64,000 nucleotides of DNA from Acidimicrobiales bacterium (GCA_035702745.1 DASSZS010000054.1:9656-73655), one strand, 5' to 3'. Positions 26,520 through 46,963 are shown, counted from the first letter of the stretch. Numbers and translations are program-made. Notes: generated from the letters alone by a model not told the origin.

Positions 26520-26533
26520 CGCGCCTCCTCCGG

Positions 26534-29041: not shown

Positions 29042-29925
29042 CAGGCCGTCCTCGCCAGTTGCTTGCCGAAGAGCCCCTGGGGGCGAAGGGACAGGACGAT
29101 GACGAGCACGATGAAGAAGGTCATGGTCGACCAGATTGGCGACCAGACCACCCCGACCACGTCCTCGAGCATCACCATCCCGATCGAGGCGACGAGAGCC
29201 CCGCCAAGGCTCCCCATCCCGCCCAGCACGATGATGGTGAGCAGGCGCGAGATCAAGTCGTAGCTCGAGCTGGCGTTGAACGCGTTCGTGGCGCCGAACA
29301 CCATGCCGCCCGCCGCCGTCACCGCGGTCCCGATGCCGAAACAGATCGTGGCGACCCTCTTCACGTTGATGCCAATGAGGGCCGCCGCCGTCTGGTCGGC
29401 CAGGGACGCACGCACGCTCGCGCCGAACCGGGTTCGATACAGCAGGACCCACAGGGCCGTGAGCAGCACCACGGCCAGGATGAAGCCGAAGACGTAGATG
29501 TAGGCGAAGTACACGCCGAAGAGCTTGAACGATTGGTTCACGTACCACGCGCTGATCTGGACGTCGTTCACCGAGAAGATCATGTTGAGTGAGCCCTCGA
29601 TGAGCAACGAGACTGCGTAGGTCACCAGGATCGACATCGCGGTCTTCTCGGGCCCTTTCAGCCGGGCCATGAAGCCCCTCTCCACCACGATCCCCACCAC
29701 GAAGAGGGTGGGGATCGTGATGAAGAGACCGACGAAGGGATCGATTCCCCAGTGCAGCTGGATCGCGTAACTCAGGTAGGCGCCCAGCACCACGAAGATG
29801 CCCTGGGCGATGTTGATGATGTCCATCACCCCGAAGATCAACGTGAGACCCGTCGCCATGAGGGCGTAGACCGACCCGGTCAGCACCCCGTCGACGATCG
29901 CGTAGGTGAGCGCGCTACCCGACAT
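29041..29925 (-). CDS. livH: Liv/HAAT-type ABC permease
   Basis: YALMATGLTLIFGVMDIINIAQG, RTRFGASVRA, IVLGGMGS, RPQGLFG. Confidence 0.9.
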   Translation of the reverse strand: MSGSALTYAIVDGVLTGSVYALMATGLTLIFGVMDIINIAQGIFVVLGAYLSYAIQLHWGIDPFVGLFITIPTLFVVGIVVERGFMARLKGPEKTAMSILVTYAVSLLIEGSLNMIFSVNDVQISAWYVNQSFKLFGVYFAYIYVFGFILAVVLLTALWVLLYRTRFGASVRASLADQTAAALIGINVKRVATICFGIGTAVTAAGGMVFGATNAFNASSSYDLISRLLTIIVLGGMGSLGGALVASIGMVMLEDVVGVVWSPIWSTMTFFIVLVIVLSLRPQGLFGKQLARTA

Positions 29926-29928
29926 CGA

Positions 29929-31179
29929 TCAGCTCTTCCAGGCCGGCTTGGGGTACAGGACCTTCACCGAGTTGGGGTCACCCACCGGGTTGACCTGGAC
30001 GAACTTCGTGCCCTGCCACTGGAAGGTGAAGGCGGTCGGGTCGACATTCTCACCAAGCTTGTTGAACTTCACCGGGCCCTGCACCGAGGACATGACCTTG
30101 CCTGAGTGCAGGTAGGCGATGATCTTGGCGTTGTTGAAGCCGTGGGTGGCCCGGACGGCCTGGGTGATCACCTCGCCCACCGAGTAGGCCTCGGCGACGT
30201 CGGAGTTGATGTCGGCCGGGGTGCCGCCGTACTGCTTGATGTAAGCCGCCACCATCGCCTTGCTGAGCGGGTTGGCCGAACCGCCGTACCACGCGTTGGG
30301 CACCATCATGCCGTTAGCGTTCTTCGCGCCCACGGCCGTCAAGAAGGCCGCGCCCTGGTCCGGTCCGCCGGTCGCGATGAAGGCCTTGGGGTTGTAGTGC
30401 GCCTGCTCGAAAGCCTGCATGAAGGCCGACACCGTGGGCACGTCGACCGAGCCGAGCACGACCACCTGGGCCTTGGCCGCGGCGACCTTGTCGGCGATCG
30501 AGGTGTAGTCGGTCACCTCGGCCGGGAAGACCGTGAAGCCAAGCGACTTGATCCCCGCCTTGGACATGATCTTCTGAGCGACCGGGAGCTGGGGCTCGGT
30601 GAAGGGGTCGTTCGAGGTGACGTAGTAGGCGGTCGTGGGACGTTGTCCCTTGGGCAGCGACGAGATCCACTTCGCGAAGGGCATGAGGTCGTTCGCCACC
30701 GGCAACGACACGTCGAAGACGTTGTTGAGGTGCGCCTGGAAGACCGACGGCGCGCCGCCCGCCCCCTCGACCATCGCGTACCCGAAACGCTCGGCCGTCT
30801 GGGCTGCCGGCACGGTGAGCAGTGACGAGAAGGGGCCGAACACCAACTGGACGTGGTCCTGGCTGATGAGGTCCTGGTAGTTCGTCACCACCTGGGTCGG
30901 ACTCGACGCGTCGGACTTGATGATGAGGTTGATCTTGTGGCCGAGCAGACCGCCGTGGGCGTTCTGCTCCTTCGCCCACAGCTCGTAGCCGCGCTGGAAC
31001 GCCTGGCCGTCGGCCGAGAAGTCGCCCGAGAGCGACAACGAGATGCCGATGTTGACCGGTGCGCCCTTGGCGAGGCCTCCCGAGCTCGCGCCGGCCGTGG
31101 AGGCCGCCGCCATCGCGATGAGTGATGCCGCGGCGACCGTGGTCGCCGCCAGCACCCTCACGGTGCTCATTCTCTTCAT
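29929..31179 (-). CDS. Liv-type (PBP1) ABC substrate-binding protein, no lipobox
   Basis: IGISLSLSGDFS, NAHGGLLG, SDASSP, VFGPFSS. The signal peptide ends in AGA with no Cys. Confidence 0.88.
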   Translation of the reverse strand: MKRMSTVRVLAATTVAAASLIAMAAASTAGASSGGLAKGAPVNIGISLSLSGDFSADGQAFQRGYELWAKEQNAHGGLLGHKINLIIKSDASSPTQVVTNYQDLISQDHVQLVFGPFSSLLTVPAAQTAERFGYAMVEGAGGAPSVFQAHLNNVFDVSLPVANDLMPFAKWISSLPKGQRPTTAYYVTSNDPFTEPQLPVAQKIMSKAGIKSLGFTVFPAEVTDYTSIADKVAAAKAQVVVLGSVDVPTVSAFMQAFEQAHYNPKAFIATGGPDQGAAFLTAVGAKNANGMMVPNAWYGGSANPLSKAMVAAYIKQYGGTPADINSDVAEAYSVGEVITQAVRATHGFNNAKIIAYLHSGKVMSSVQGPVKFNKLGENVDPTAFTFQWQGTKFVQVNPVGDPNSVKVLYPKPAWKS

Positions 31180-31281
31180 TGATTCCCCCCGAATCAATCT
31201 GTGTGACGACGTCGGTGGCTCCCCACTTTGCGGTCCACCCGCGTCGTTCGCCGGGACGGCGATGGGGTAACGCTAACGACG

Positions 31282-31311
31282 GCCCTCGGGCTAATCAAGG
31301 CGCCCGAGGGC
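31282..31311. promoter_or_regulatory. 10-N10-10 inverted repeat in the divergent promoter region of the catabolic island
   Basis: GCCCTCGGGC-TAATCAAGGC-GCCCGAGGGC. Confidence 0.5.
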
Positions 31312-31320
31312 TCTCAGCCG

Positions 31321-31333
31321 TGAAAAGATTTCA
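31321..31333. promoter_or_regulatory. AT-rich palindrome TGAAA-N3-TTTCA, candidate operator
   Basis: Perfect 5-3-5 inverted repeat that is AT-rich in a very GC-rich background. It lies between the two divergent -10 elements (TAGCGT on the minus strand, TACCAT on the plus strand). Confidence 0.5.
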
Positions 31334-31404
31334 AACGCGCGGCCCTTCTCCTGCCCTCGAGGACGGCGTTACCATCTCCAGCCATCCGGGCCGGTGGGGG
31401 GACT

Positions 31405-32505
31405 GTGACCGACGCGCTTCTGGAGACCGCCATTGCCAACTGGCAGCCCCGCTTCGTGGCGAACGGGGTCGACGCAAGTGACTATGTGCACATAGCGGCG
31501 CGACTCGAGCGCTGGGAGGACTGGTGCGCCGCGTGGTGTGAGGCCGGCGCCGAGCACGAGTCACTCGGGGTCGCCGCCCGCGCTGCGGGGAACTCACGCA
31601 GCGCCGGCGAACACCTCGCTCGCGCCGCCGTCTACTTCCACTTCGCGAAGTTCCTGTTCGTCCACGACCTCGACCAGGCCCGCGCCGCCCACGTCCGCGC
31701 CGTCGCCTCCCTGAGCGACGCCGCAGCCCATCTCGCACCCCCCGCGGCCCGACTCGAGATCCCCTTCGAGGGAACACGGCTCGTCGCTGTTTTGCGCACT
31801 CCCGACTCGGCGACGCCCCAGCCGACGGTCGTCCTGATCCCGGGGCTCGACTCGGCGAAAGAGGAGTTCCGCGAGGTCGAGCGGGCCTTCCTAGAGCGAG
31901 GCCTGGCCACCGTGTCGCTCGAGGGTCCGGGCCAGGGCGAGGTCGAGTGGGACCTGCCGATCCGTCCGGACTGGGAGGTCGTGGGCGAGGCCGCGCTGGG
32001 CTTCCTGCGGAGCCGGCCCGAGGTCGATCCGAACCGGATCGGCCTCTGGGGCGTATCCCTCGGGGGCTACTACGCCGCGCGGATTGCGGCGGCCGACCTC
32101 GGGGTGCGCGCCACGGTGGCCCTCTCGGGGCCCTACGACTTCGCGGCCGCCTGGGAGTCGCTCAACCCCCTCACCCGGCGGGCCTTCGTCGTGCGCTCCC
32201 ACAGTGCCGACGAGGCCGAGGCGACGCGACGAGCCGCGGAGCTCACCCTGGCCGGTCGCGCGGCGTCGATCACGGGTCCTCTCCTGGTCATCCAGGGCCG
32301 ACGGGATCGGCTCTTCTCGTGGCGCGAGGGCGAACGGCTCGTCGCCGAGGCGGCGGGTCCCGCGGAGTTGCTCGTCCTTGACGAGGGTAACCACGGTTGC
32401 GCGAACGTCACCTACCGACACCGGCCCTACGCTGCGGACTGGCTGGCTCGCCACCTGGGCGTGGAGCCTCGAACGACGTCTACCCCCGGAGACCCACATG
32501 CCTAA
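31405..32505 (+). CDS. Alpha/beta hydrolase, 2,6-dihydroxypseudooxynicotine (DHPON) hydrolase / FrsA / Ayg1 family
   Basis: PGLDSAKEE, LERGLAT-x2-EGPGQGE, GVSLGGYYA (Ser), QGRRD (Asp), GNHGCAN (His). These match the Arthrobacter DHPON hydrolase motifs as I recall them. Confidence 0.8.
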   Translation: MTDALLETAIANWQPRFVANGVDASDYVHIAARLERWEDWCAAWCEAGAEHESLGVAARAAGNSRSAGEHLARAAVYFHFAKFLFVHDLDQARAAHVRAVASLSDAAAHLAPPAARLEIPFEGTRLVAVLRTPDSATPQPTVVLIPGLDSAKEEFREVERAFLERGLATVSLEGPGQGEVEWDLPIRPDWEVVGEAALGFLRSRPEVDPNRIGLWGVSLGGYYAARIAAADLGVRATVALSGPYDFAAAWESLNPLTRRAFVVRSHSADEAEATRRAAELTLAGRAASITGPLLVIQGRRDRLFSWREGERLVAEAAGPAELLVLDEGNHGCANVTYRHRPYAADWLARHLGVEPRTTSTPGDPHA

Positions 32506-33844
32506 GGTCACGATGCCCCAGTTGGGAGAGACGGTGGCCGAGGGGACCGTCACCAAGTGGTTCAAGGCGGTCGGCGAGACGGTCGACAAGGGGGAGGCGC
32601 TCTTCGAGGTCTCCACGGACAAGGTCGACACCGAGATCCCCTCACCCGCCGGCGGAACCCTGACGGCCATCCTTGTCCCGGCCGGTCAGACCGTCGACGT
32701 CGGCACGACCCTCGGGCTCATCGACGAAGAACCCGAGGCCGTCACCGTTCGGGAGCAACCGGGCGCGCGAAACGACGCCGAGGCCCGCGCTGGCGATCCC
32801 CCCCTCCCCGACTCGACGAGGGGCCGTGGCGACGGCACCACCGCCGAGCGGCTCTCACCGGTGGTGCGCCGACTCCTCGCCGAGCACCACCTGGAACCGA
32901 GTGATGTCGTGGGGACGGGTCCGGCGGGGCGTATCACCCGCGAGGACGTCCTCGCCCACGTGGCGGCCCCCCTCGCGAGCACGCCGGCGACCGGCGAGGA
33001 CGCCGCCGTCTCACCGGTGGTGCGCCGACTCCTGCGCGAGCACGGTCTGAGCGTCGGCGACGTCGTCGGGACCGGCCCGGGTGGACGCGTCCAGCGTCGC
33101 GACGTGGAATCCGCTCTCACCAGGAGTTCGGGGTCGGACGAGGTCGTGCCGTTCTCGACGATTCGGCGCCTCACCGCCGAACACATGGTGCGCTCCAAGG
33201 CGACCTCAGCTCACACCCTGATGGTGCGCGAGATTGACTACGAGAACGTCGAGCGAGTCCGCCGGCGTCACGGGGCCTCATTCAAAGAGCGCGAGGGGTA
33301 CTCACTCACCTATCTGCCCTTTAACGCCGTGGCCGCGGTGCAGGCCCTCGGCGAGTTCCCACACCTCAACGCGTCCGTCGGCGACGACGCCCTCATCGTG
33401 CACGGGTCGGTCAATCTGGGCGTCGCGGTGGACCTCGACGGTCAGGGCCTGGTCGTACCCGTCGTGCGCGACGCGGCGGCTCTCTCTCTGGGCGAGATGG
33501 CGGCGCGCGTGCGCGCCCTCGCCACGGGCGCCCGCTCGAAGCGCCTCACCGTCGACGACATGTCCCACGGGACGTTCACGATCACCAACCCCGGCCCCTA
33601 CGGGACCCTGATGACCGGGGCGATCATCAACCAGCCCCAGGTGGCGATCCTCGCGACCGACGGGGTCTCACGACGGCCCGTCGTCGTCACCGGAGCTGAC
33701 GGCGAGGAGATGATCGCGATCCACTCGATCGGACTGGTCGCGCTGACCTTCGACCACCGGGTCATCGACGGGGCGTACGCCGCGCGGTTCCTCGCGCGCC
33801 TCGCCGATATCCTCGAGACCCGCGACTGGGCCCGCGAGCTCTGA
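32498..33844 (+). CDS. Dihydrolipoamide acyltransferase (E2) with one lipoyl domain and two E1/E3-binding domains
   Basis: MPQLGETVAEG, EVSTDKV (lipoyl Lys), two SPVVRRLL-x-EH...GTGP-x-GR domains, GTFTITNPG, TFDHRVIDGA. Confidence 0.92.
   Translation: MPKVTMPQLGETVAEGTVTKWFKAVGETVDKGEALFEVSTDKVDTEIPSPAGGTLTAILVPAGQTVDVGTTLGLIDEEPEAVTVREQPGARNDAEARAGDPPLPDSTRGRGDGTTAERLSPVVRRLLAEHHLEPSDVVGTGPAGRITREDVLAHVAAPLASTPATGEDAAVSPVVRRLLREHGLSVGDVVGTGPGGRVQRRDVESALTRSSGSDEVVPFSTIRRLTAEHMVRSKATSAHTLMVREIDYENVERVRRRHGASFKEREGYSLTYLPFNAVAAVQALGEFPHLNASVGDDALIVHGSVNLGVAVDLDGQGLVVPVVRDAAALSLGEMAARVRALATGARSKRLTVDDMSHGTFTITNPGPYGTLMTGAIINQPQVAILATDGVSRRPVVVTGADGEEMIAIHSIGLVALTFDHRVIDGAYAARFLARLADILETRDWAREL
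32853..33033 (+). repeat. Intragenic duplication of the E2 peripheral-subunit-binding domain
   Basis: An identical 25-mer, TCTCACCGGTGGTGCGCCGACTCCT, occurs at 32853-32877 and 33009-33033. Confidence 0.9.
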
Positions 33845-33847
33845 GCC

Positions 33848-34741
33848 ATGGTCGACCGGTTGCGCCTCGGCACCTTCACCCCGTCAGTCCTGCTCGAGGT
33901 GGCGCGCCGCAGCGGCTCGCTCGATCGGGCCGACCTCGAGGTCGACGAGGTCGCGGTCGCGTCGTCCCCGGCCCAGTTCCAGTCCCTGCTCGCCGGAGAC
34001 CTCGACGTGGTGCTCACCAGTCCCGACAACGTCCTGGCGTACCACTTCCTCTCGCGAAACCCGCTCGGTCAGCGCATTCCCCTCGTCGTGGAGGCCGCGA
34101 TCGACCGTGGACTGGGTCTGTCGCTCTGGGCCCGTGCGGGCCTCGGGGATCCGAGACCCGGGGCTCGCCTCGCCGTCGACGTGGCGACCTCGGGATTCGC
34201 GTTCGTCGGCTACGCCCTGCTCGCCCGGCGGGGCCTCGGCCTCGACGACGTCGAGGTGGTGGCCCTGGGGTCGACCCCCCGGCGCGCCGCGGCCCTCGCC
34301 GAGGGGGGGTGTGACCTCACGGTGCTGAACGCGGGCAACCAGTTCCCGGCGCGGGCCGCCGGTGCGACCCTCCTCGGTGAGGCGTGCGACCTCGGTCCGT
34401 ACCTAGGCACCGTCGTCGCGGGTCTCGCCTCACCGTCCGCCGATCGTCACCGCCTGGCCGACACCCTGGTCGAGGTGGCTCAGGCGATCGCTGAGGGTCG
34501 CCACGACGACACCGTGCGCGAGGCCGCCGCCGACCGACTGGGACTCAGCGGCCCCGACGCCTCGAGTTTCGCCGGACTGCTGCGCGATCCTGAGCGAGGA
34601 CTCGTGCCGTCGGGATGCGTCGACCGCCGCTCCATTCGCACCCTGATCGAGCTGAGGCGCGTGGCCGAACCGGACCCCGCCCTCGACGACGTCGAGGGCG
34701 GCCTCGCAGAGCTGGTGGCCCCCGGCCACCTCATCGACTAA
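33848..34741 (+). CDS. Type-II periplasmic-binding-protein-fold protein (NMT1/THI5/SsuA-like) without a signal peptide
   Basis: SSPAQFQSLLAGDLDVVLTSPDN, AVDVATSGFAF, LGSTPRRAAAL motifs. The N-terminus (MVDRLRLGTF) has no hydrophobic stretch. Confidence 0.75.
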   Translation: MVDRLRLGTFTPSVLLEVARRSGSLDRADLEVDEVAVASSPAQFQSLLAGDLDVVLTSPDNVLAYHFLSRNPLGQRIPLVVEAAIDRGLGLSLWARAGLGDPRPGARLAVDVATSGFAFVGYALLARRGLGLDDVEVVALGSTPRRAAALAEGGCDLTVLNAGNQFPARAAGATLLGEACDLGPYLGTVVAGLASPSADRHRLADTLVEVAQAIAEGRHDDTVREAAADRLGLSGPDASSFAGLLRDPERGLVPSGCVDRRSIRTLIELRRVAEPDPALDDVEGGLAELVAPGHLID

Positions 34742-34750
34742 GGAGACCCG

Positions 34751-36256
34751 ATGCGCGACACCCGTCTGAGCGACGACCTACTCGCGGCGCGACCGGTGTG
34801 GGGGTCGCTCATCGCTGGCCGGTTCCGAGACCACGCCGGGGCCGACCTGTTCAGCGTCCACGAGTCGGCGACGGGCGAGACCCTCGCCCACGTCGTCGCG
34901 GCGTCGGACACTGAGGTCGCCGAGGCGGTCGCGGACAGCCGGCGCGCCTACGACGAGACCTGGCGTCGACTCTCCCCCCGGGAACGCGCGGGCTACATGC
35001 GCGAGGTGGCCGCACGCTTCCGGGCCCACGCCGAGGAGCTCGGAGAGCTGTGCGCACGCGAGGTGGGCAAGCCCCGACGCGACGCCCTGCGGGTGGACGT
35101 GGTCTCGAGCCACACGAGCTTCGACTACTACGCCGGCATCGCCGACACGGTCCCGGGCCACATCGTGGACCAGGGCCCGATCGAGGCCCGGGTCACCTAC
35201 GAGCCCTACGGCGTCGTAGCGGCGATCCTCCCCTTCAACTGGCCCCCCATCCACTTCTCTAAGAAGTGCGCCCCGGCCCTCGCGGTCGGCAACACGGTGG
35301 TGCTCAAGCCCGGCGAGCAAGCGCCCCTGACCGTGCTGCGCCTCGCCGAGCTCGCCAACGAGGTCCTGCCCCCGGGCGTCATCAACGTCGTGAGTGGGAT
35401 CGGCGCGGGCCCGGCGCTGGTGGGCCACCCGCGCGTCGAGCGGATCTCCTTCACGGGCTCCACGCTGACCGGTCGTCGAGTGCTCGAGGCCGCCGCCAAG
35501 AACCTCACCTACGCGACGATGGAACTCGGCGGCAAGAACGCCCTGCTCGTGCTCGACGACGCCGACCTCGAGCAGGCCGTCACGGTGGCGATTGAAGGGA
35601 TGTTCTACAACCAGGGCGAGGCCTGCACCTCCACCTCGCGCATCGTGATCGAAGAGCCCCTCTACGACGAGTTCGCCCGACGCTTCGTCGAGGCCACGGC
35701 GCGCCTCGTGGTCGGTGACCCGCTGGACGGGGCCACCGACATCGGCCCCATGGTCGACGCCCGCCAACGCGATCGGGTGAACCACTACATCACGGTCGGT
35801 CTCGACGAGGGCGCCACGGTCCTCTACCGGGGCGACGTCCCCCACGAGCGTCCCCTCAGCGAGGGCTACTTCGTCACCCCGGTCGTCTTCGGCGACGTGA
35901 CGGCGTCGATGACGATCGCGCGCGACGAGATCTTCGGTCCGGTAGCGAGCCTCATGCGCGCGGCCGACGACGCGCAGGCCGTGGCCATCGCCAACGACTC
36001 CGACTATGGACTCACCGCGGCGATCTGCACCCGCGACGAATCCCGCGCCGCCCGGCTGGCCGAACGGCTCGAGGTGGGCATGGTCTTCGTGAACAACTAC
36101 ACCCGGCGGACCTACATCGGCTCACCCTTCGGCGGTGTGAAGGCCAGCGGCTTCGGGCGCGAGTACGCGCCCGAGACGTTGCACGAGTTCGTTCGCGCGA
36201 AGAACGTCCGGTTCCCCTCGGGCCGCGGACCGGTACCCGGCTGGCCGCCCCGATGA
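34751..36256 (+). CDS. Aldehyde dehydrogenase
   Basis: PFNWP, KPGEQAP, FTGST, ELGGKN, NQGEAC, EIFGPV, PFGGVKASG. Confidence 0.93.
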   Translation: MRDTRLSDDLLAARPVWGSLIAGRFRDHAGADLFSVHESATGETLAHVVAASDTEVAEAVADSRRAYDETWRRLSPRERAGYMREVAARFRAHAEELGELCAREVGKPRRDALRVDVVSSHTSFDYYAGIADTVPGHIVDQGPIEARVTYEPYGVVAAILPFNWPPIHFSKKCAPALAVGNTVVLKPGEQAPLTVLRLAELANEVLPPGVINVVSGIGAGPALVGHPRVERISFTGSTLTGRRVLEAAAKNLTYATMELGGKNALLVLDDADLEQAVTVAIEGMFYNQGEACTSTSRIVIEEPLYDEFARRFVEATARLVVGDPLDGATDIGPMVDARQRDRVNHYITVGLDEGATVLYRGDVPHERPLSEGYFVTPVVFGDVTASMTIARDEIFGPVASLMRAADDAQAVAIANDSDYGLTAAICTRDESRAARLAERLEVGMVFVNNYTRRTYIGSPFGGVKASGFGREYAPETLHEFVRAKNVRFPSGRGPVPGWPPR

Positions 36257-36262
36257 GGGGTA

Positions 36263-36288
36263 ATCGGCCCTCGGTAGTCTGGGCCGAT
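36263..36288. promoter_or_regulatory. Putative TetR autoregulatory operator ATCGGCCC-N10-GGGCCGAT
   Basis: 8-bp inverted repeat flanking the TAGTCT -10 and overlapping the tetR ATG. Confidence 0.6.
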
Positions 36289-36895
36289 GACGCGTGACCG
36301 CATCCTGGAGGCGGCGGCCCACGAGATCGAGCGCAACGGCCTGACCCAGTTCCGAGTCAAGCGCGTGGCCATGGAGGCCGGCATATCGGTCGCCCTGCTC
36401 TACAGCTACTTCAGCGATCGCGAGGACCTCATCGCCTCGGCGATCGTCCACCGGTTCCGGGCGGTTCTGCTGGACCTGGCCGAGACCTTCACCCGCCCGA
36501 TGCTCGATGTGCAGACCCCCGCGGAGCTACGCGCGGCCATCCGAACCGTGATCGTCGAGGCGCAGGTGCCCGCTCGTACCGAGGCCCGGATCCAGCGCAT
36601 CGAGTCGATGTCCTTCGCCCGCCACAACCCGACCGCCTCTCAGGGCATCGCCGAGGCGAAGAAGGAGACGGCTCAGTTCATCGTCGCCCGGGTCCAGCCC
36701 CTCGAGGAGAGGGGCCTCCTCGCCGAGGGGATGAGCGCGGTCGCCTTCGCGCGCATCTGGTACGCACTCTTCTTCGGTCAGATCGAGCTCGAGGGGGAGC
36801 ACGCGCTTTCGGTGGGTGACGAGGAGTGGCTGACGGCTCTCACCGTCCTCGCTGACGGAGCGATCCGGCGCGAGTCGAGCTCAACCCCTCGCTGA
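36287..36895 (+). CDS. TetR/AcrR-family regulator
   Basis: N-terminal HTH: RDRILEAA...VAMEAGISVALLYSYFSDREDL. Confidence 0.92.
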   Translation: MTRDRILEAAAHEIERNGLTQFRVKRVAMEAGISVALLYSYFSDREDLIASAIVHRFRAVLLDLAETFTRPMLDVQTPAELRAAIRTVIVEAQVPARTEARIQRIESMSFARHNPTASQGIAEAKKETAQFIVARVQPLEERGLLAEGMSAVAFARIWYALFFGQIELEGEHALSVGDEEWLTALTVLADGAIRRESSSTPR

Positions 36896-36900
36896 CCGCC

Positions 36901-37512
36901 TCAGTCGCGCGTGCGGAGCTCGTGGGCCCACTCGGTCACGCAGAGGGCGTAGCCGATCTCGAAGACGATCTCGCCCGTGAGCAGGTGGGTGAAGTGCCAG
37001 TCCGGCAGGGAGGCGGCAGCCACCACGCCGCCGACCATCAGCACCCAGAATCCCACGTTGGCCATGGTCGTCGCGCGCCGGCGCATGATGCGCCACGACG
37101 CACCGAGCTGCACGAGCGCCCCGACGACTCCCACCGTCATGTGGGCCCAGTTGAGGAACGCACCCTCGTTGTACGGCGTCACCAGCAGCAGGATCAGCAT
37201 CACCGAGACGACGCGCGCGCTGATCCAGCCCACCGCCTCGATTCCCTCCCCCCGCAGAATCCCGGCGAACCACCACAGTCCCACCGCGGCGACCACGTAA
37301 CCCACCACCGCGAGCACGATCGTCTCGGCGTGCACGCCGTAGTAGGAGATCCCGTCATTTTGGGCGACGTGGTCGTGAATCAACAGCACGCATAGGGCGA
37401 GGGCTCCGAAGAAGACCCCCTGGCTCGCCAGGATGATTCGTCGGGCTCGCTCGTAGGCGACGTCGGCGAGCGACGACTCGACGTCGACGCCGTGGCTCGC
37501 CCCCCCCTCCAT
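36901..37512 (-). CDS. Hypothetical multi-pass membrane protein (DUF998/Frag1-like, tentative)
   Basis: About 6 TM with GISYYG, TPY and HMTVG motifs. Its ATG overlaps the ppa stop (TGATG). Confidence 0.7.
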   Translation of the reverse strand: MEGGASHGVDVESSLADVAYERARRIILASQGVFFGALALCVLLIHDHVAQNDGISYYGVHAETIVLAVVGYVVAAVGLWWFAGILRGEGIEAVGWISARVVSVMLILLLVTPYNEGAFLNWAHMTVGVVGALVQLGASWRIMRRRATTMANVGFWVLMVGGVVAAASLPDWHFTHLLTGEIVFEIGYALCVTEWAHELRTRD

Positions 37513-37994
37513 CAGTCCGTGTAGCGCGCCCTCGAGGCCGCCAACTCCTCGAGCGCGGCGGCTCGGGGGGCGTAGTTCTCGACCTTCACCCACTTACCCT
37601 CTTCGAGGTCCTTGTACACGGTGAAGAAGTGCGAGATCCGGTCGAGGTCGGCCTTGGGGACGTCACCGATGTCCTGGGCGTCCCTCCACTGCTTGTCGTA
37701 GGCCGGGACGCAGATGAGCTTCTCGTCACGTCCCTTCTCGTCGGTCATGACACACATGCCCAGGACCCGGGACTCGATGAGGCACCCGGGGAAGGTGGGA
37801 AAGGCCGTCAGGACTAGCGCGTCGAGGGGGTCTCCGTCGCCCCCGAGCGTGTCGGGGATGAACCCGTACTCAGCCGGGTAGCCCATCGAGACGGTCAGGT
37901 GTCGGTCGAGCTTGATCTGGTGGGACTCGTGGTCGTACTCGTACTTGTTCGCGCTGCCTCGGGGGATCTCGATAATCACGTTGACGGTGTCCAC
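37512..37994 (-). CDS. ppa: Inorganic pyrophosphatase (family I)
   Basis: IEIPRGS-x-NKYEYD, YGFIPDT, DGDPLDALV, DEKGRDEK. GAGGAGG RBS. Confidence 0.95.
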   Translation of the reverse strand: MDTVNVIIEIPRGSANKYEYDHESHQIKLDRHLTVSMGYPAEYGFIPDTLGGDGDPLDALVLTAFPTFPGCLIESRVLGMCVMTDEKGRDEKLICVPAYDKQWRDAQDIGDVPKADLDRISHFFTVYKDLEEGKWVKVENYAPRAAALEELAASRARYTD

Positions 37995-38105
37995 GGCGCC
38001 TCCTCGTACGACGGCTAGCCCTATGGTAGCCAGCCCCCCGGTGGGGCCCGCGCGCGGTCCTAGACTCGCCGACGGTCCGGCGACGCCGTGGACAAGGAGG
38101 TCCTC

Positions 38106-38960
38106 GTGGAGAGAATCGGTGTAGTGGGCTGCGGCCTCATGGGTTCGGGCATCGCTGAGGTCGCGGCGCGCGCCGGCGGTCAGGTGATCGTCGTGGAGCA
38201 GGACTTCAAGTCCCTCGAGCGAGGTCGCGAGCGTGTCGACCGCTCGCTCTCGCGAGCCGTCGCCTCGGGCAAGCTGGCCGAGGACGTCGCCGAGCGCACC
38301 CACGCGAACCTCACCTTCACCCTCGAACTCGACGCGCTCGAGGACCGCGAGCTCGTCATCGAGGCGGTCGCCGAGGACGAGGCGACGAAGCTCGAGGTCT
38401 TCGCCACCTTGGACCGGGTCGTGCGCGACACCGACGCACTCCTGGCGACCAACACCTCCTCGATCCCCATCATCAAGCTGGCCATGGCCACCCGTCGCCC
38501 CGAACAGGTCATCGGGATGCACTTCTTCAACCCGGTGCCGGTGCTACGACTCGTCGAGCTCATCTCGTCGCTGCTCACCTCGGCCGAGTCGACGGCCCGG
38601 GCCCGCGCCTACGCCACCGACACCCTCGGCAAGACGGTCATCACCTCGCCGGACCGCGCGGGGTTCGTCGTCAACGCCCTGCTCATCCCCTACCTCCTGT
38701 CGGCGATCCGGATGTTGGAATCAGGATTCGCGAGCGCCGAGGACATCGACACCGGCATGGTCGTGGGCTGCGCTCACCCGATGGGCCCCCTCGCCCTGAC
38801 GGACCTGATCGGCCTGGACACCACGCTCGCCGTGGCCGAGTCGCTCTACGAGGAGTTCAAGGAGTCCCACCTCGCCCCGCCGCCGCTGCTCAGCCGCATG
38901 ACCCAAGCCGGTCTGCTGGGTCGCAAGTCGGGCCAGGGCTTCTACTCGTACCGCGCCTAG
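38106..38960 (+). CDS. 3-hydroxybutyryl-CoA dehydrogenase
   Basis: GVVGCGLMGSGIA, IEAVAEDE, ATNTSSIPI, GMHFFNPV, HPMGPL. Confidence 0.93.
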   Translation: MERIGVVGCGLMGSGIAEVAARAGGQVIVVEQDFKSLERGRERVDRSLSRAVASGKLAEDVAERTHANLTFTLELDALEDRELVIEAVAEDEATKLEVFATLDRVVRDTDALLATNTSSIPIIKLAMATRRPEQVIGMHFFNPVPVLRLVELISSLLTSAESTARARAYATDTLGKTVITSPDRAGFVVNALLIPYLLSAIRMLESGFASAEDIDTGMVVGCAHPMGPLALTDLIGLDTTLAVAESLYEEFKESHLAPPPLLSRMTQAGLLGRKSGQGFYSYRA

Positions 38961-38977
38961 CCCCCTACGCTCGGGGG

Positions 38978-39835
38978 ATGACCGGCGCCGTCACCTACGT
39001 CGTCACGCTGCGATGCCCAGACGCACCGGGCATCGTCCACGCGACGACCTCGGCCATCGTGGCCGTCGGAGGGAACATCCTGGAGAACGACCAGTTCACC
39101 GACCCGGTGACCGGGCTGTTCTGCATGCGCACGCGCTTCGAGACCGGCCTCGGCGAGACCGAGCGGGTGGGCGCCCGCCTCGGTGCGGAGCTGGAGCGAT
39201 TCTCCCCGGACCTACGGGTGCGGCGAGGGGACCAGCGCCGCCGGGCGGTCGTGATGGTCTCGGACCACGACCACTGCCTCGCCGATCTCTTCTACCGGGT
39301 CGAGCACGGCGAGATCCCCCTCGAGATCACGACGGTCGTCTCGAACCACTCGACGCTCGCCCCCCTGGCCCAGCACCACGGGGTCCCCTTCGTCGAGGTC
39401 CCCGTGACCCCCGCGACGAGGGATGAGGCGGAGGACGAGCTGCGACGGGTGGTCGCCCAGTCGGGCGCGGAGTTGATCATCCTCGCGCGCTACATGCAGA
39501 TCCTCACGCCCGCGCTGTGCGCCGAGTTCGAGGGCCGGATCGTCAACATCCACCACTCGTTCCTGCCCGGATTCACCGGCGCGCGGCCGTACCACCGGGC
39601 CTACGAGCGTGGGGTCAAGTTGATCGGCGCCACGGCCCACTTCGTCACGGCCGACCTCGACGAGGGACCGATCATCGATCAAGACGTCGCCCGGGTCACC
39701 CACGCGCGGACCCCCACGGAGCTGGTCGCTATCGGTCGGGACCTGGAGCGCATGGTCCTGAGTCGCGCCGTGAAGTTGCTCGCCGAGGACCGGGTGGCAC
39801 TCATCGGCCCGCGGACGGTCGTCTTCTCCCAGTAG
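38978..39835 (+). CDS. purU: Formyltetrahydrofolate deformylase
   Basis: N-terminal ACT domain (CPDAPGIV), HCLADL, LARYMQIL, NIHHSFLP, RGVKLIGATAHFV. Confidence 0.95.
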   Translation: MTGAVTYVVTLRCPDAPGIVHATTSAIVAVGGNILENDQFTDPVTGLFCMRTRFETGLGETERVGARLGAELERFSPDLRVRRGDQRRRAVVMVSDHDHCLADLFYRVEHGEIPLEITTVVSNHSTLAPLAQHHGVPFVEVPVTPATRDEAEDELRRVVAQSGAELIILARYMQILTPALCAEFEGRIVNIHHSFLPGFTGARPYHRAYERGVKLIGATAHFVTADLDEGPIIDQDVARVTHARTPTELVAIGRDLERMVLSRAVKLLAEDRVALIGPRTVVFSQ

Positions 39836-40003
39836 TGCGCGGGCTCGGCGCGGCCTGGTCGCCGCCGCCGGGACCCACGCGACGCTCCATCTCGGAGAGA
39901 TCCTCCGGACTCGCCCCGGCATCCTCTCTTCCCATCCGACCGTCCGCTACCGTCAGGGCCCAGAGCCGCGTCCGTTCAGCTTCTCGTGGAAGGGAGACCC
40001 GCG

Positions 40004-40543
40004 ATGCCAGGAGACGAGAGCAGCTCTACCTCGCGCATCCTCGTGATGGGGGTGTCGGGCGCGGGCAAGTCCACGGTCGGGCTCGCCCTCGCGGACCGGC
40101 TGGGCTTTCGCTTCGTGGAGGCCGATGACCTCCATCCCCCCCGGAACCGGGCCATGCTCGCCCAGGGGCGCCCCCTCTCGGACCAGGACCGTTTCCCCTG
40201 GCTGCGAGCGGTGGGCGAGCGACTGGCGGCCCCGGGCGTCGTCGTGTCGTGCTCGGCGCTCGCGCGCACCTACCGCAACGTCCTCAAGGCCCACGCGCCC
40301 GACCTGGTGAGCGTGCACCTATCGGTCTCGCCCGACGTGGCCGCCCAACGGCTCGCCGAGCGCGAGGACCACTTCGCCTCCTCGGCACTCCTCGACTCCC
40401 AGTTCGCCGCGCTCGAGCCGCTGGCGCCCGAGGAACGGGGCGTCACCCTCGACGCGACCCAACCCGTCACGACGATCGTCGAGGAGATCGCGACGGTCCT
40501 GGCCCGAGGTCTCGAGCCCTCCTCGGGGGCCGGCGCCCTCTAG
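40004..40543 (+). CDS. gntK: Gluconokinase
   Basis: VMGVSGAGKST, EADDLHP, PLSDQDRFPWL, CSAL, LLDSQF-x2-LEP. Confidence 0.9.
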   Translation: MPGDESSSTSRILVMGVSGAGKSTVGLALADRLGFRFVEADDLHPPRNRAMLAQGRPLSDQDRFPWLRAVGERLAAPGVVVSCSALARTYRNVLKAHAPDLVSVHLSVSPDVAAQRLAEREDHFASSALLDSQFAALEPLAPEERGVTLDATQPVTTIVEEIATVLARGLEPSSGAGAL

Positions 40544-40544
40544 G

Positions 40545-41774
40545 TCAGGTCACCGCGGCGCGCGCGGCGAAGCGCTCGTCGAGGTGGGCGCCGCTCTCGA
40601 CAACCTGCGCGAGACGCTTAACTGCGTCAAAGACGTCGACGTAGCGCAGGTAGAGCGGCGTGAACCCGAAGCGCGCGACGTCAGGTTCGCGGAAGTCGCC
40701 GACGACGCCCGCCTCGGCGAGCGCCCGCACGAGGCCGTAGGCGGCGGGGTGACGCAGCGCCACCTGCGAGCCCCGTCGAGCGTGCTCGCGCGGCGTTATG
40801 ACCTCGAAGACGCCGGGCAGGCGCCCCTCGAGCTGCTCAATGAACAGGTCCGTCAGGGCGAGGCTCTTCGCGCGCACCCCGTCCATCGGGGCCCGCTCCC
40901 AGACCGAGAGTGCGCCGTCGAGGGCGGCCAGGGCCACGATCGACGGCGACGACGTCACGAAGGCCCGCATGCCCGACGCCGACTCGTAGTCGGTCTCGAA
41001 GGCGAAGGGGCGGGCGTGACCGAGCCAACCCGGGAAGGGGTTACGCAGCGCGCCGTGCCAACGCTCGCGCACGTAGCAGAAGGCCGGTGCACCCGGCCCG
41101 CCGTTGAGGTACTTGTAGCCGCACCCCGCCGCGAAGTCCACGTCGGCCCCCTCCACGTCGAGGGGCACCGCGCCCGCCGAGTGCGCGAAGTCCCACAGCA
41201 TGAGCGCCCCGGCGTCGTGCACCGCGCGGGTCACCCCGGCGAGGTCGAGCATCTCCCCCGTGCGAAAGTCCACGTGGGTCAGCATCACGAGGGCGACGTC
41301 GTCGTTGAGGTGCTCGGCGAGCCGCGCGCGATCGATCGTGCGCACGCTCACCCGACGCCCCGCCCTCTCGGCCATCGCGCGCACGATGTAAAGGTCGCTG
41401 TGGAAGTTGGCGGCGTCGGTGAGCACGACGTCGCGATCGGGGCGCAGCTCGAGGGCTCCCCCGATCAGCTTGGCCAGGAGCACCGTCAAGGTGTCGGCGA
41501 CGAGCACCTCGTGGGGGCGGGCTCCGATGAGGGGCGCGAGCCGCTGTCCGAGACGCAGGGGCTGTTCCATCCACCCCTCGTTCCACCCCCGCACGAGCGC
41601 CGTCGACCACTCCCGGTCGAGGACCTCGCGGACCCGGGCCGCCGCCGGCTCGCAGACCGGACCGAGGGAGTTCCCGTCGAGGTAGATCTCCCCCTCGTTA
41701 AGTCGGAACTCACCGCGCAGCGCGGCCAGTGAGTCGACCCGGTCGAGGGCCTCACACTCCTCGCGACTCCTCAT
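40545..41774 (-). CDS. kynU: Kynureninase
   Basis: YLDGNSLG, WDFAHSAGA, GCGYKYLNGGPG (PLP Lys), RGSQV, DFREPD. Confidence 0.93.
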   Translation of the reverse strand: MRSREECEALDRVDSLAALRGEFRLNEGEIYLDGNSLGPVCEPAAARVREVLDREWSTALVRGWNEGWMEQPLRLGQRLAPLIGARPHEVLVADTLTVLLAKLIGGALELRPDRDVVLTDAANFHSDLYIVRAMAERAGRRVSVRTIDRARLAEHLNDDVALVMLTHVDFRTGEMLDLAGVTRAVHDAGALMLWDFAHSAGAVPLDVEGADVDFAAGCGYKYLNGGPGAPAFCYVRERWHGALRNPFPGWLGHARPFAFETDYESASGMRAFVTSSPSIVALAALDGALSVWERAPMDGVRAKSLALTDLFIEQLEGRLPGVFEVITPREHARRGSQVALRHPAAYGLVRALAEAGVVGDFREPDVARFGFTPLYLRYVDVFDAVKRLAQVVESGAHLDERFAARAAVT

Positions 41775-42517
41775 AGCGCACTCCTCACGTCCCACAGCGC
41801 CGGGTAGAGGCGCTGGCCGATCGTCGTCTCAAGGTAGGCCATGCCGGCGCTCCCGCCGGTGCCGGGCCGCCGACCGATCTCGCGACCGGCCATGAGCAGG
41901 TGACGGTGCCTCCAGGTCGCGAGGTTCTCGTCGTGGTCGACGAGCCGCTCGGCCACGGCGTGGAGTGCGGCCCGTTCGGGGGTGGAGTGGTCATGGTAGA
42001 GCGCCGCGAGGCGCTCGAGCACGTCCCCGGGGCCAAGGAACGTCTCGAGGCTCGCGAGGAATCCCGACCACACGTCCGGTTCGGCCGCGACCGCGCGGAG
42101 CCAAGCCCGCTGACGATCCTCGAAGAAGGGGAAGTCGAGCGCGCGCGGGTCGCCGGCGCCCGAGAGGAACTCGATCGCCCGGAACTGGAAGGATTGGAAA
42201 CCCGACGCCGGGTTCAGCGGGTCGCGGAAGCGCAGGAACTCCTCGGGCGACATGATCTCGAGGACCGCGAGGTGGCCGAGCAGAAGCCGGCCGACGTCGA
42301 CCGTGCGTGAGCGCGGCGCCAACGCCCGCCACGGCTCGCTGGCGGCCAGACGCGCCGCGGCCCGCCGTAGCTCGTCAAGCACGACCTTGAACCAGAGCTC
42401 GTAGGCCTGGTGAACGACGATGAAGAGCAGCTCGTCGTCGGCGTCGGCCGTTAGGGGCACCTGAAGGGTCAGCAGGTCGTCGATCCTCAGATAGCTCGAA
42501 TAGTCGGTCGCGGCCAC
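41771..42517 (-). CDS. kynA: Tryptophan 2,3-dioxygenase
   Basis: YSSYL, ELLFIVVHQAYELWFK, ASGFQSFQFR, GTGGSAG. Confidence 0.9.
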   Translation of the reverse strand: MAATDYSSYLRIDDLLTLQVPLTADADDELLFIVVHQAYELWFKVVLDELRRAAARLAASEPWRALAPRSRTVDVGRLLLGHLAVLEIMSPEEFLRFRDPLNPASGFQSFQFRAIEFLSGAGDPRALDFPFFEDRQRAWLRAVAAEPDVWSGFLASLETFLGPGDVLERLAALYHDHSTPERAALHAVAERLVDHDENLATWRHRHLLMAGREIGRRPGTGGSAGMAYLETTIGQRLYPALWDVRSAL

Positions 42518-42539
42518 GGTGCCCAACCCTACGCCCGCT

Positions 42540-44219
<1,680 letters not shown>

Positions 44220-44292
44220 CCCACCAGTCTGGCCGAGGACGCACGGGTTCCGAGCGGGTCGTGACGCGACAGGCCACCCGTACACTCGAGCG

Positions 44293-45756
44293 GTGCCCAC
44301 CACGACCTTCACCCGGACCCGTCACGCTCCGGACTGGCTGATCCTCTCGATCGCGTGCCTCGCTCAGTTCATGGTGGTGCTCGACGTGTCGATCGTCAAC
44401 GTGGCGCTACCCCGCATGAGCCACGATCTCCACTTCACGATCACGAGCGCCCAGTGGGTCGTAAACGCCTACGTGCTGACCTTCGCCGGCTTCTTGCTCC
44501 TCGGGGGTCGAGCGGCCGACTACTTCGGGCGCCGCCACGTCTATCTGGCCGGCATCGCCGTGTTCACGCTGGCGAGCATCGGCGCCGGATTCGCGGCCTC
44601 GGGGTCGCAGATGGTGGCCGTGCGGGCCCTCCAGGGGCTCGGAGGCGCCATCGTGTCGCCGGCGACGCTCACCATCATCGTCACCACCTTTCACGGCCCC
44701 CGTCTCTTGAAGGCCATCGGCGTCTGGAGTGCGGTGGCCGGCGCCGGCGGCGCCGTGGGCGGGCTCCTCGGGGGGATCCTGACGGGCCTCGCCTCGTGGC
44801 GCTGGGTCTTTTTCATCAACGTGCCCCTAGGCGTCCTGGCGGGCGTCGCGGCCACGATGTACCTGCGCGAGATGCGCAACACGGACGCCTCCGCCAAGCT
44901 CGACGTGACCGGCGCGGTTCTCGTGACCGGTGGGTTGGCCGCGGTGATCTACGCGGTGGTGAATACGACGACCCACCCCTGGGGCTCGTCTGCGACCCTC
45001 GAGTGGATCGTGGGCGGCGGCGTCCTCTTGATCGCCTTTTTCGTCTGGGAGGCGCGCGTCGCCTCGCACCCCTTGATGCCGTTCCGGATCTTCCGATCCC
45101 GGCCGCTCTCGACCGCCAACGGGGTGATGGTGCTCGTGGGCGGCGCCTTCTTCGCCATGTGGTACTTCCTCTCGTTCTACTTCCAGTACGTCCTCGGCTA
45201 CGGCCCGGTCCGCGCGGGCTTCGCGTTCATGCCGATGTCGATCGGCATCATCACCGGAGCCCAGATCTCCTCCCGACTCATCGCCCGGGTCGGGGTGCGT
45301 CCCCTGCTCGTCGTGGGCAGCCTGCTCGCCACCGTCGGCTTCTACTGGCTGTCGTTCGTCCAGACCACGAGCGGCTACTGGGTCAGCCTCGCTCCACCCT
45401 CGTTCTGCTGCGCCTTCGCCATGGGCGTCCTCTTCTCGCCCCTGGCCGCCGCAGCCACCGCCGGGGTGGACCGCGCCGACGCCGGACTCGCCTCGGGAAT
45501 CCTCAACACGGCCCGACAGGTCGGGGGCTCGATCGCGCTGGCGACCCTCGGCACGATCGCGGCCGATCGGACGGCGGCCCTGGTGCGCGCCGGTGTGACG
45601 GGCTTCGCGGGTGCACGCGTCGCCGGCTACGACCGCGTCTTTGAGGTCTCGGCGATCATCACGCTCGCCGCACTCGTCGTCAGCCTGGCCCTACCCCGTC
45701 ACGTGGGGCGCCACCCCGACGGGGCCCGGGCCCCACTCGTCGAGCCGGCAGGCTAG
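44293..45756 (+). CDS. MFS transporter, DHA2 family
   Basis: QFMVVLDVSIVNVALP, GGRAADYFGRR, WRWVFFINVP. Confidence 0.92.
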   Translation: MPTTTFTRTRHAPDWLILSIACLAQFMVVLDVSIVNVALPRMSHDLHFTITSAQWVVNAYVLTFAGFLLLGGRAADYFGRRHVYLAGIAVFTLASIGAGFAASGSQMVAVRALQGLGGAIVSPATLTIIVTTFHGPRLLKAIGVWSAVAGAGGAVGGLLGGILTGLASWRWVFFINVPLGVLAGVAATMYLREMRNTDASAKLDVTGAVLVTGGLAAVIYAVVNTTTHPWGSSATLEWIVGGGVLLIAFFVWEARVASHPLMPFRIFRSRPLSTANGVMVLVGGAFFAMWYFLSFYFQYVLGYGPVRAGFAFMPMSIGIITGAQISSRLIARVGVRPLLVVGSLLATVGFYWLSFVQTTSGYWVSLAPPSFCCAFAMGVLFSPLAAAATAGVDRADAGLASGILNTARQVGGSIALATLGTIAADRTAALVRAGVTGFAGARVAGYDRVFEVSAIITLAALVVSLALPRHVGRHPDGARAPLVEPAG

Positions 45757-45777
45757 TCTCGCCTCCTGCGGGTAGGC

Positions 45778-45785
45778 ATACCCGC
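45778..45785 (+). terminator. 3' arm of a short hairpin GCGGGTA-GGCA-TACCCGC (about 45768-45785) downstream of the MFS gene, possible terminator
   Basis: 7-bp stem just after the MFS stop codon, with no U-tract. Confidence 0.3.
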
Positions 45786-45865
45786 CCGCTCGCGCCCGGT
45801 CGGGGGTACGAGTCACGGCGCGGTCCTCACGGCGATGACCGCACTTCAGACATGGGGAGACATAC

Positions 45866-46963
45866 ATGCGGAGGATCAATCGGCTCGGCGCACTGATCGG
45901 GGCTGGAGCACTCGTCCTCGGGACGGTGACGGTCGGGGTCGCCACGACAGTGTCGGTCGCCTCGGCCGCGGGCAAGTTCAAGGCCTGCGTCGTGACCGAC
46001 ACCGGTGGCATCAACGACCACTCGTTCAACGCCTCGGCCTGGGCCGGTCTGCAGAACGCGGCCAAGAAGGACAAGAACATCACGGCGTCGTACCTCTCGT
46101 CGACCTCGTCGGCGTCGTACACGCCCAACATCAACAAGTTCATCTCCCAGGGTTGCGGCATCATCGTCACCGTCGGGTTCTTGATGGACGGCGCCACGGC
46201 GACGGCGGCTAACGCCCACCCGAACCAGAAGTTCGCCATCGTCGACGACGTGCCGAACGCGCCCAAGTCGCACGGCCTGCTCGCCCTCACCTACGACACC
46301 AACCAGGACGCGTTCCTCGGCGGCTACGTGGCGGCGGCGATGAGCAAGACGGGCGTGGTCGCCACCTACGGCGGCGCGGACATCCCGCCGGTGACCATCT
46401 ACATGGACGGCTTCGTCGCGGGCGTGCGCTACTACGACCTGCACATGCACAAGCACGTCAAGGTCCTGGGCTGGACCCCGTCGAAGGGCAACCGCGCCAA
46501 GGGCCAGTTCAACGGCAAGGGCACCTTCGTGGGCAACTTCACCGACCAGACGGCCGGCAAGACCATCACCTCGGGCTTCTTCGCCGACGGCGCGGACATC
46601 GTCTTCCCGGTGGCCGGTGGCGTGGGCCTCGGCTCAGTCGCGGCCGCTCAGCAGACCGGCAAGAAGCATTCGATCATGTGGGTCGACTCGGACGGCTGCT
46701 TCGCCGAGAAGGCGGACTGCGCCTACTTCATCGGCTCGGTCACCAAGGGCGTCACGACCTCGGTGGAGGACGCGGTCCTGGCCGCGGCCAAGGGCACGTT
46801 CAAGCCGGGTAGCTACGTCGGCACCCTGGCCAACGGCGGCGTCAAGTTCTACTTCGACTCCCCGACGATCCCCGCCTCGCTCAAGGCCAAGGTCCAGCAG
46901 CTGACCAAGGGCATCGAGACCGGCACGATCTCGGTCGACCCGACGAAGTACCCCGTCGGCTGA
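45866..46963 (+). CDS. BMP/PnrA-family nucleoside-binding protein, no lipobox
   Basis: KACVVTDTGGINDHSFN, IVTVGF, FLGGYVAA, GADIVFPVAG. The signal peptide ends in ASA with no lipobox Cys. Confidence 0.9.
   Translation: MRRINRLGALIGAGALVLGTVTVGVATTVSVASAAGKFKACVVTDTGGINDHSFNASAWAGLQNAAKKDKNITASYLSSTSSASYTPNINKFISQGCGIIVTVGFLMDGATATAANAHPNQKFAIVDDVPNAPKSHGLLALTYDTNQDAFLGGYVAAAMSKTGVVATYGGADIPPVTIYMDGFVAGVRYYDLHMHKHVKVLGWTPSKGNRAKGQFNGKGTFVGNFTDQTAGKTITSGFFADGADIVFPVAGGVGLGSVAAAQQTGKKHSIMWVDSDGCFAEKADCAYFIGSVTKGVTTSVEDAVLAAAKGTFKPGSYVGTLANGGVKFYFDSPTIPASLKAKVQQLTKGIETGTISVDPTKYPVG

Follow-up and report, generated by a model that had tools for sequence, protein, structure and literature searches.

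Lipid anchoring of substrate-binding proteins is used as a genomic clue to the number of membranes that surround a cell. What does it mean when the binding proteins of an actinobacterium carry no signal for such an anchor? We addressed this question for two ATP-binding cassette (ABC) importers encoded in a 64,000-nucleotide stretch of DNA from an Acidimicrobiales bacterium (GCA_035702745.1, DASSZS010000054.1:9656-73655), hereafter called the window. The binding proteins of both importers, one Liv-type and one BMP/PnrA-like, lack a lipobox and have signal peptides of the signal peptidase I (SPI) type, and this state is inherited and maintained over a family-level clade of uncultured soil and peat Acidimicrobiales. 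Both proteins belong to known families and use a known export mode, which is the minority mode for the binding proteins of monoderm bacteria. The features concerned are as follows (a slash within a sequence marks the predicted cleavage position).

29929..31179, minus strand: Liv-type (HAAT family, Peripla_BP_6, PF13458) substrate-binding protein, 416 aa, no Cys
31087..31179, minus strand: Liv-type signal peptide, residues 1-31, reading MKRMSTVR, then VLAATTVAAASLIAMAAA, then STAGA/SS; predicted SPI site S-x-G-A/S-S
45866..46963, plus strand: BMP/PnrA-like substrate-binding protein, 365 aa (PF02608, PDB alignments, AlphaFold model)
45866..45967, plus strand: BMP signal peptide, residues 1-34, with n-region MRRINR, a long Gly/Thr/Val-rich h-region and c-region SVASA/AG; predicted cleavage 3 residues before strand beta1
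45986..45988, plus strand: codon of Cys41, in the middle of beta1 (FKACVVT), invariant, no lipidation site (alignments, AlphaFold model)

Signal peptides of the two binding proteins

The N-termini of the Liv-type protein (MKRMSTVRVLAATTVAAASLIAMAAASTAGA/SSGG) and the BMP protein (MRRINRLGALIGAGALVLGTVTVGVATTVSVASA/AGKFKACVV) read as the first-pass annotation had written them, and its claim that both have SPI-type sites and no lipobox was confirmed. Each signal consists of a basic n-region and a weakly hydrophobic, uncharged h-region, followed by small residues at -3 and -1 and no Pro at +1, as expected of substrates of the Sec pathway and SPI. Neither protein matches the lipobox pattern [LVI][ASTVI][GAS]C with the Cys at mature position +1, and the Liv-type protein has no Cys over its full length (nC=0 for P0121/P0122). 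The flexible linker between Cys and fold that is usual in monoderm binding-protein lipoproteins is also missing from both: only 3 residues in BMP and about 10 in Liv separate the predicted site from the first strand, compared with linkers of 15-50 residues in lipoprotein homologues. No C-terminal hydrophobic tail or sorting motif was present in either protein. The BMP fold spans residue 38 to the C-terminus, and therefore there is no room for another anchor.

A lipobox could be hidden by a wrong start or a gene-calling error. No start codon lies between the BMP start at 45866 and the preceding stop, so that no in-frame upstream extension exists, and the Liv open reading frame can be extended by 6 codons at most. 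A G-rich ribosome-binding site lies 5-8 nt upstream of both starts, and hundreds of independent assemblies show conserved N-termini. These observations rule out such an error.

The only N-terminal Cys of the BMP protein, Cys41, is preceded by F-K-A and was considered as a non-canonical lipidation site. In alignments with PDB entries (matches down to E 9e-39), query residues 35-39 correspond to the start of the mature PnrA/Lbp chains, and Cys41 falls inside 'KIKIGMVTDVGG', at a position equivalent to the hydrophobic centre of strand 1 in the solved PnrA, Lbp and BmpA-type structures. The AlphaFold model (pLDDT 81 overall) places beta1 at residues 38-44 and leaves residues 1-34 unstructured (pLDDT <50). 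In many lipoprotein homologues, the Cys of the 'KAC[MLV]V[TS]D' motif is kept alongside a separate lipobox Cys; because both occur in the same proteins, the core Cys and the lipobox Cys are independent of each other. Lipidation at Cys41 was rejected on these grounds, and the earlier assignment of the Cys in KACVV to the folded core is supported by all three lines. An artefact of any of these kinds, be it in the start, the gene call or the core Cys, can hardly be credited, and this explanation is refuted as far as the sequences reach, the more so as the Liv-type protein contains no Cys at all.

Conservation across the clade

We sampled three binding-protein orthogroups from uncultured Acidimicrobiales, taking the best 120 homologues of each (approximately 360 sequences). 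All 120 BMP homologues (62-96% identity) had the same architecture and none had a lipobox; two matched the regular expression through the core beta1 Cys in 'FLAC' variants. In the Liv-type orthogroup (68-100% identity), almost all of the 120 were Cys-free with SGA/SS, and a lipobox occurred in one cluster (P0200/P0419), which was the only canonical one over all three orthogroups. The third orthogroup represents a distant paralogue within Peripla_BP_6, which is accompanied by livHMGF genes of its own at the related loci L017 and L018; its members were named Acidimicrobiales and, in some cases, Gaiellaceae, and none of the 120 sequences had a canonical lipobox. A Cys within the h-region was found in three sequences in total (P0128, P0139 and P0496), each of which retained the downstream A-x-A site. 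The first-pass annotation had suspected a trait of the lineage, and the SPI-type state indeed held in all three orthogroups sampled.

The predicted sites were conserved at their key positions. In the BMP orthogroup, Ala occupied -3 in 93%, -1 in 91% and +1 in 83% of the sequences, position -2 was mixed (S 62%, G 15%, T 14%), and the c-region columns flanking the site were only 44-48% conserved. The Liv site read S89-G96-A98/S88-S86 (percent conservation, 113 orthologues), and that of the third group had Ala (77%) or Ser (16%) at -3, a variable -2 and Ala (91%) at -1. Conservation at -3 and -1 thus ranged over 77-98%, with more variable neighbours, most clearly in the BMP and third groups. The uncharged stretch was 25-34 residues long. 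Summed over the best 19-mer, the Hessa free energy was positive in 98%, 100% and 89% of the sequences of the three orthogroups (medians +1.5, +3.4 and +1.5 kcal/mol), and pairwise identity was 0.55, 0.54 and 0.34 in the signal region versus 0.72, 0.75 and 0.79 in the mature part. The BMP signal peptide (window 45884-45940) was itself unusually conserved, with the RR pair kept in 92-93% and further positions at G98, L94, L88, G96 and T91; two of its Gly residues, seven residues apart, were near-invariant.

Further binding proteins and lipoproteins were sought in the 10 kb flanks on either side in 80 related genomes (L008-L087) and in 14 further loci with our own signal and lipobox heuristics, which gave many false positives (e.g., internal segments of thymidine phosphorylase) and were not relied on. 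The flanks were largely syntenic and held few exported proteins; the scan yielded the L017 binding-protein orthogroup described above and one possible lipoprotein in L099. The latter, a DUF3089 protein (L099:85-1242, plus strand), has the N-terminus MLVGLAAAATVLGGC/GGTKRGTTTT, which is lipobox-like (VLGGC/GG) and has no basic n-region. Its gene lies on a Gaiellaceae-like contig, 9 kb upstream of an SPI-type binding protein (P0522) whose N-terminal pattern is shared with homologues named Gaiellaceae (P0535 and P0538), and it is possibly a lipoprotein that coexists with SPI-type binding proteins. The search was also extended upstream of the window and found nothing relevant there.

A natural exchange between SPI site and lipobox

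The single lipobox cluster shows how the two states are related. P0200 and P0419 read LVLSAC followed by a 28-residue S/T/G-rich linker; P0420, which belongs to the same 90%-identity cluster, is of the SPI type (SVAVTSTSGA/STNS), and the loci of all three are syntenic with the window. When the DNA of L007:10001-10170 was compared with that of L096:3001-3130, the flanks aligned closely, and mean column identity was 87% over the whole 411-column alignment, gaps included. Approximately 90 nt encoding the lipobox and linker stand in place of approximately 50 nt that encode the SPI site, and the exchange takes in precisely the h-region end, the cleavage site and the linker. Contigs bearing either allele came from ENA and JGI assemblies, including two similarly numbered JGI metagenomes. 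These sequences show that the anchoring mode is evolutionarily labile. They further suggest that the lipoprotein state was gained together with its tether and that at least one close relative can make use of the lipoprotein route. By eye, the lipobox-cassette stretch appeared less G+C-rich than its flanks. A search of metagenome contigs for the donor of the cassette recovered the same allele only and no donor copy.

Lipid anchoring in the BMP family and in other monoderms

An exhaustive search of the 50%-identity representatives of BMP proteins yielded 75 stand-alone representatives. A lipobox was present in 54 of these by the strict regular expression, and in about 60 when truncated N-termini were judged by eye. 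These distant lipoproteins, one of them from Streptomycetaceae, have L-[AST]-[AG]-C followed by a long S/T/G/P/E-rich linker. The earlier statement that BMP proteins are normally lipoproteins thus holds outside the clade. The SPI-type representatives are found mainly among those nearest to the query (e.g., P0073, P0244, P0245, P0249, P0251, P0274 and P0331; 52-64% identity). This pattern is broken in both directions, by the lipoprotein P0293 (56%) and by P0255, an SPI-type protein of the classical actinomycete Actinocorallia. As most representatives are metagenome proteins, the taxonomic boundary of the SPI-type clade can be drawn only roughly. A missing Cys within about 35 residues is unremarkable when taken alone; the contrast with the family norm is not due to chance.

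Among 124 binding proteins of three Firmicutes classified by LocateP, 96 were lipoproteins, 11 N-anchored and 6 secreted, so that non-lipoprotein binding proteins are a known minority in monoderms (17/124; PMC2375117). A standard review places freely diffusing binding proteins in Gram-negative bacteria only (PMC3971661). In view of these two sources, three SPI-type orthogroups out of three are somewhat unexpected, roughly at the 1% level if a background of 20-25% is applied to a sample that is small and biased, all three orthogroups using BPD_transp_2 permeases and two of them belonging to one Pfam family.

Many distant BMP homologues were 600-1100 aa long, with a kinase-like N-terminus of the Ser/Thr type (…LGxGGFGxVY…) and a C-terminal BMP domain (P0248, P0265, P0283, P0285, P0288, P0292, P0305, P0326 and P0329 among them). 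These fusions suggest that BMP domains may also serve as extracellular sensor domains. In addition, P0241-P0243 were lipoproteins of about 700 aa with two matched BMP stretches each.

Export and fate of the binding proteins

We consider it fairly likely that both proteins are exported by Sec, cleaved by SPI and released as unanchored, soluble binding proteins. Each would be made with a Sec-type signal peptide, which SPI would cut after export at the conserved small-x-small site (ASA/AG in BMP, AGA/SS in Liv). The mature protein would carry no lipid and would begin 3 (BMP) or about 10 (Liv) residues before the first beta strand, as is the case in Gram-negative periplasmic binding proteins. It may then function in soluble form between membrane and wall, held near the permease by wall sieving and docking affinity with no covalent anchor. 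We infer cleavage because -3 and -1 are conserved, the h-region is weakly hydrophobic, the signal diverges faster than the mature part, and the gap between site and strand is short and linker-free, with no other anchoring domain or C-terminal motif present. Several points weigh against this proposal. The case for cleavage is built from simple rules and conservation, and since A, S, T and G abound over the whole of the c-regions, small-x-small matches are easily obtained. The uncharged stretch is long, and the BMP h-region is conserved at the positions listed above (G98, L94, G96, T91, L88) as a functional, retained helix would be. According to LocateP, many Gram-positive proteins with a putative SPI site remain N-terminally anchored (PMC2375117), and if free binding proteins belong to Gram-negative bacteria only (PMC3971661), a free protein in a monoderm would need some form of retention.

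Some of these points lend weight to the main rival, a signal that, left uncut or cut inefficiently, would remain as a single membrane helix and hold the binding protein near its permease. A transmembrane-helix anchor is a recognised mode for binding proteins (PMC3971661) and a known monoderm alternative to lipid anchoring, used by the 11 N-anchored Firmicute proteins (PMC2375117); segments of 25-34 residues would be long enough, and the two Gly residues seven apart are among the strongly conserved BMP positions. However, the positive free energies of 89-100% of the sequences fit a cleaved signal better than a stable membrane anchor, each of the three orthogroups conserves -3 and -1 more strongly than the adjoining positions, divergence is faster in the signal region than in the mature part, and a BMP tether would measure only about 8 residues. 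We regard a signal anchor as rather unlikely. The conserved RR pair of the BMP n-region could also point to export by the twin-arginine (Tat) pathway with SPI cleavage afterwards. The Tat consensus is S/T-R-R-x-F-L-K before the h-region. The BMP pair stands in the context I/V-R-R-L-(G/V/A/T)-(T/A/M), which has neither a polar residue at -1 nor the F-L-K part (the window protein reads M-R-R-I-N-R, the clade consensus I-R-R-L-G-T), and because of this mismatch Tat export would come as a considerable surprise. Moreover, the Liv-type protein has no RR, and no cofactor requirement is known for the BMP family. Tat export was rejected, and SPI cleavage after Sec export is retained as the preferred explanation.

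Cell envelope and lipoprotein pathway

The first-pass annotation had gone from the missing lipobox to another retention route, such as a compartment under an outer layer, an uncleaved signal anchor or wall binding, and to possibly reduced lipoprotein biogenesis. Its reading stood for the SPI-type signals, the core Cys and the family norm, and received no support for the envelope: nothing in the window or in about 100 related loci bears on envelope architecture. No outer-membrane, S-layer, lgt or lspA gene was found among the approximately 50 window genes scanned against Pfam, and no study of the Acidimicrobiia envelope or lipoproteins was found in the literature. The trait does not at this point amount to evidence of an unusual cell envelope, a speculation that our data neither support nor exclude.

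In its full form, the envelope explanation holds that Acidimicrobiales have a weakened or altered lipoprotein pathway and that most of their binding proteins remain soluble in a true periplasm-like compartment enclosed by an outer barrier, be it an outer membrane-like layer, an S-layer or a sheath. It would account for the SPI type of all three orthogroups over approximately 360 sequences, set against BMP homologues elsewhere of which about 72-80% are lipoproteins. Lgt (PF01790) is present in 12,956 of 13,512 genomes, with a single match in Acidimicrobium ferrooxidans, and Acidimicrobiales are among the lineages whose divergent Lgt lacks the otherwise fully conserved R143 and R239, both of which are needed for Lgt function in Escherichia coli (PMC13251419). 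This divergent Lgt is compatible with an altered lipoprotein pathway and is no demonstration of a reduced one. In contrast, the syntenic orthologue that has recently exchanged its SPI site for a canonical lipobox and linker is at least 90% identical to an SPI-type allele and recurs in ENA and JGI contigs, which implies a usable lipoprotein pathway in the clade. The orthogroups number only three, with the shared permease type and Pfam family noted above; no gene for an outer membrane or S-layer was seen in the window; an SPI-type BMP protein also occurs in an ordinary actinomycete (P0255); and cultured Acidimicrobiia are described as Gram-positive. Taken together, these points make the explanation very unlikely. 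A further proposal, that Acidimicrobiales, and perhaps other deep-branching Actinomycetota such as Gaiellales, have for the most part abandoned the lipid anchoring of their ABC binding proteins, with a majority of SPI-type proteins alongside the divergent Lgt, seems to us doubtful. If it were true, the envelope would need to hold soluble proteins of about 40 kDa within an undescribed periplasm-like compartment.

If a whole class of Actinomycetota exported unanchored binding proteins, either lipid anchoring would be an unreliable clue to membrane number in deep-branching Gram-positives, or the envelope of these abundant, mostly uncultured soil bacteria would retain soluble proteins in an undescribed way. 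A class-wide trait would also link with the report of an Lgt without R143 and R239. The present evidence is narrower, namely a clade-wide, conserved choice of signal type in three transporter systems. Within it, the P0200/P0420 pair offers a natural example of an in-place switch from an SPI site to a lipobox plus linker.

Comparison with known systems

The closest known counterparts of the BMP protein are the nucleoside-binding BMP lipoproteins PnrA/TmpC, BmpA-D and Med/NupN (PF02608; PDB 2FQW, 9Q1U, 6SHU and 7X0R). It shares with them the fold, the ligand-site strand TDxGGxxDxSFN and an operon with a fused double ATPase and two BPD_transp_2 permeases, and its gene moreover lies in a nucleoside-catabolism neighbourhood. 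In contrast to the characterised members and most homologues, which are lipoproteins with L-x-[AG]-C and a linker, the window protein has A-x-A 3 residues before beta1 and no linker. The Liv-type protein shares its fold family, its livHMGF-type operon and its export logic, an SPI signal with the mature start just before the fold, with the Gram-negative LivJ/LivK proteins (HAAT, PF13458; PDB 1Z15 and 4N0Q). The host differs, being an actinobacterium with a presumed single membrane and no outer membrane to retain a free protein. With the N-anchored and secreted Firmicute binding proteins recognised by LocateP, a minority of 17/124 (PMC2375117), the window proteins have in common a monoderm host and the absence of a lipobox; whereas those are scattered exceptions, the state described here is fixed over three orthogroups and hundreds of sequences.

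The two operons and their neighbourhood

The window has a G+C content of 70.7% and comes from an uncultured soil member of the Acidimicrobiales. Soil metagenome bins with the label Actinomycetes or Acidimicrobiales are its closest public relatives, at 93-97% protein identity; a second tier (61-68%) is made up of bins from peat, bog, fen and Danish soil that carry the label Acidimicrobiaceae or Acidimicrobiales. Both reading frames were present at the coordinates first given for them; the Liv-type gene runs on the minus strand, with its ATG at 31179. The span 29929-46963 given for the pair is not a unit and takes in two unrelated operons approximately 15 kb apart. Their remaining genes are as follows.

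29041..29925, minus strand: livH-like permease (BPD_transp_2; Pfam)
28037..29044, minus strand: livM-like permease (BPD_transp_2); start approximate, by analogy with L100
27267..28040, minus strand: livG-like ABC ATPase; start approximate
26534..27274, minus strand: livF-like ABC ATPase (Pfam)
47030..48541, plus strand: ABC ATPase of the BMP operon with two fused ATP-binding domains (Pfam)
48538..49782, plus strand: BMP-operon permease 1 (BPD_transp_2; Pfam)
49779..51071, plus strand: BMP-operon permease 2 (BPD_transp_2; Pfam)

The Liv-type protein matched PF13458 with E 2.6e-48 and 166 bits (gathering cut-off 31.7). This score, its PDB matches and the livHMGF-type gene order, in which the binding protein is followed by two BPD_transp_2 permeases and two ABC ATPases, place it in the HAAT/LivK family. 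The BMP protein matched PF02608 with E 1.1e-45 and 156 bits (gathering cut-off 24.1) and belongs to the BMP/PnrA family by this score, its type I binding-protein fold and its ABC operon with BPD_transp_2 permeases. Both genes encode genuine binding proteins of ABC importers, and both systems appear functional as nutrient importers.

The Liv operon is flanked (window 22356-26537 and 31405-36256) by genes for branched-chain 2-oxoacid dehydrogenase E1 alpha, E1 beta and E2, a 3-hydroxyisobutyrate dehydrogenase-like protein, an M24 peptidase, an FrsA-like hydrolase and an aldehyde dehydrogenase. This arrangement, which is kept in the relatives L007 and L100, would suit a system that takes up and degrades branched-chain amino acids or peptides, and the ligand is probably a branched-chain amino acid or a related compound. 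Beside the BMP operon lies a compact nucleoside salvage and catabolism cluster (window 51940-61455) that encodes a pseudouridine-5'-phosphate glycosidase-like protein, pyrimidine and purine nucleoside phosphorylases, adenosine deaminase, a phosphomutase, aldehyde dehydrogenases and DeoC. Because of this setting, the BMP/PnrA-type protein probably binds nucleosides.

Two further parts of the window are of separate interest. A lipid methyltransferase of the CMAS family (cyclopropane or mycolic-acid type; PF02353, E 1e-86) is encoded at 8127-9449 on the plus strand, and in related contigs (L088) the gene for an LPG_synthase_TM protein lies directly upstream of the window. Both proteins act on membrane lipids, with no link to the binding-protein finding established. 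The third exported protein of the window, a small member of the neocarzinostatin family (PF00960, E 1e-7) encoded at 16331-16792 on the plus strand, has an SPI-type signal ending in GVGAASA/AGG, and its gene adjoins those for a LuxR-type response regulator and a major facilitator superfamily (MFS) transporter.

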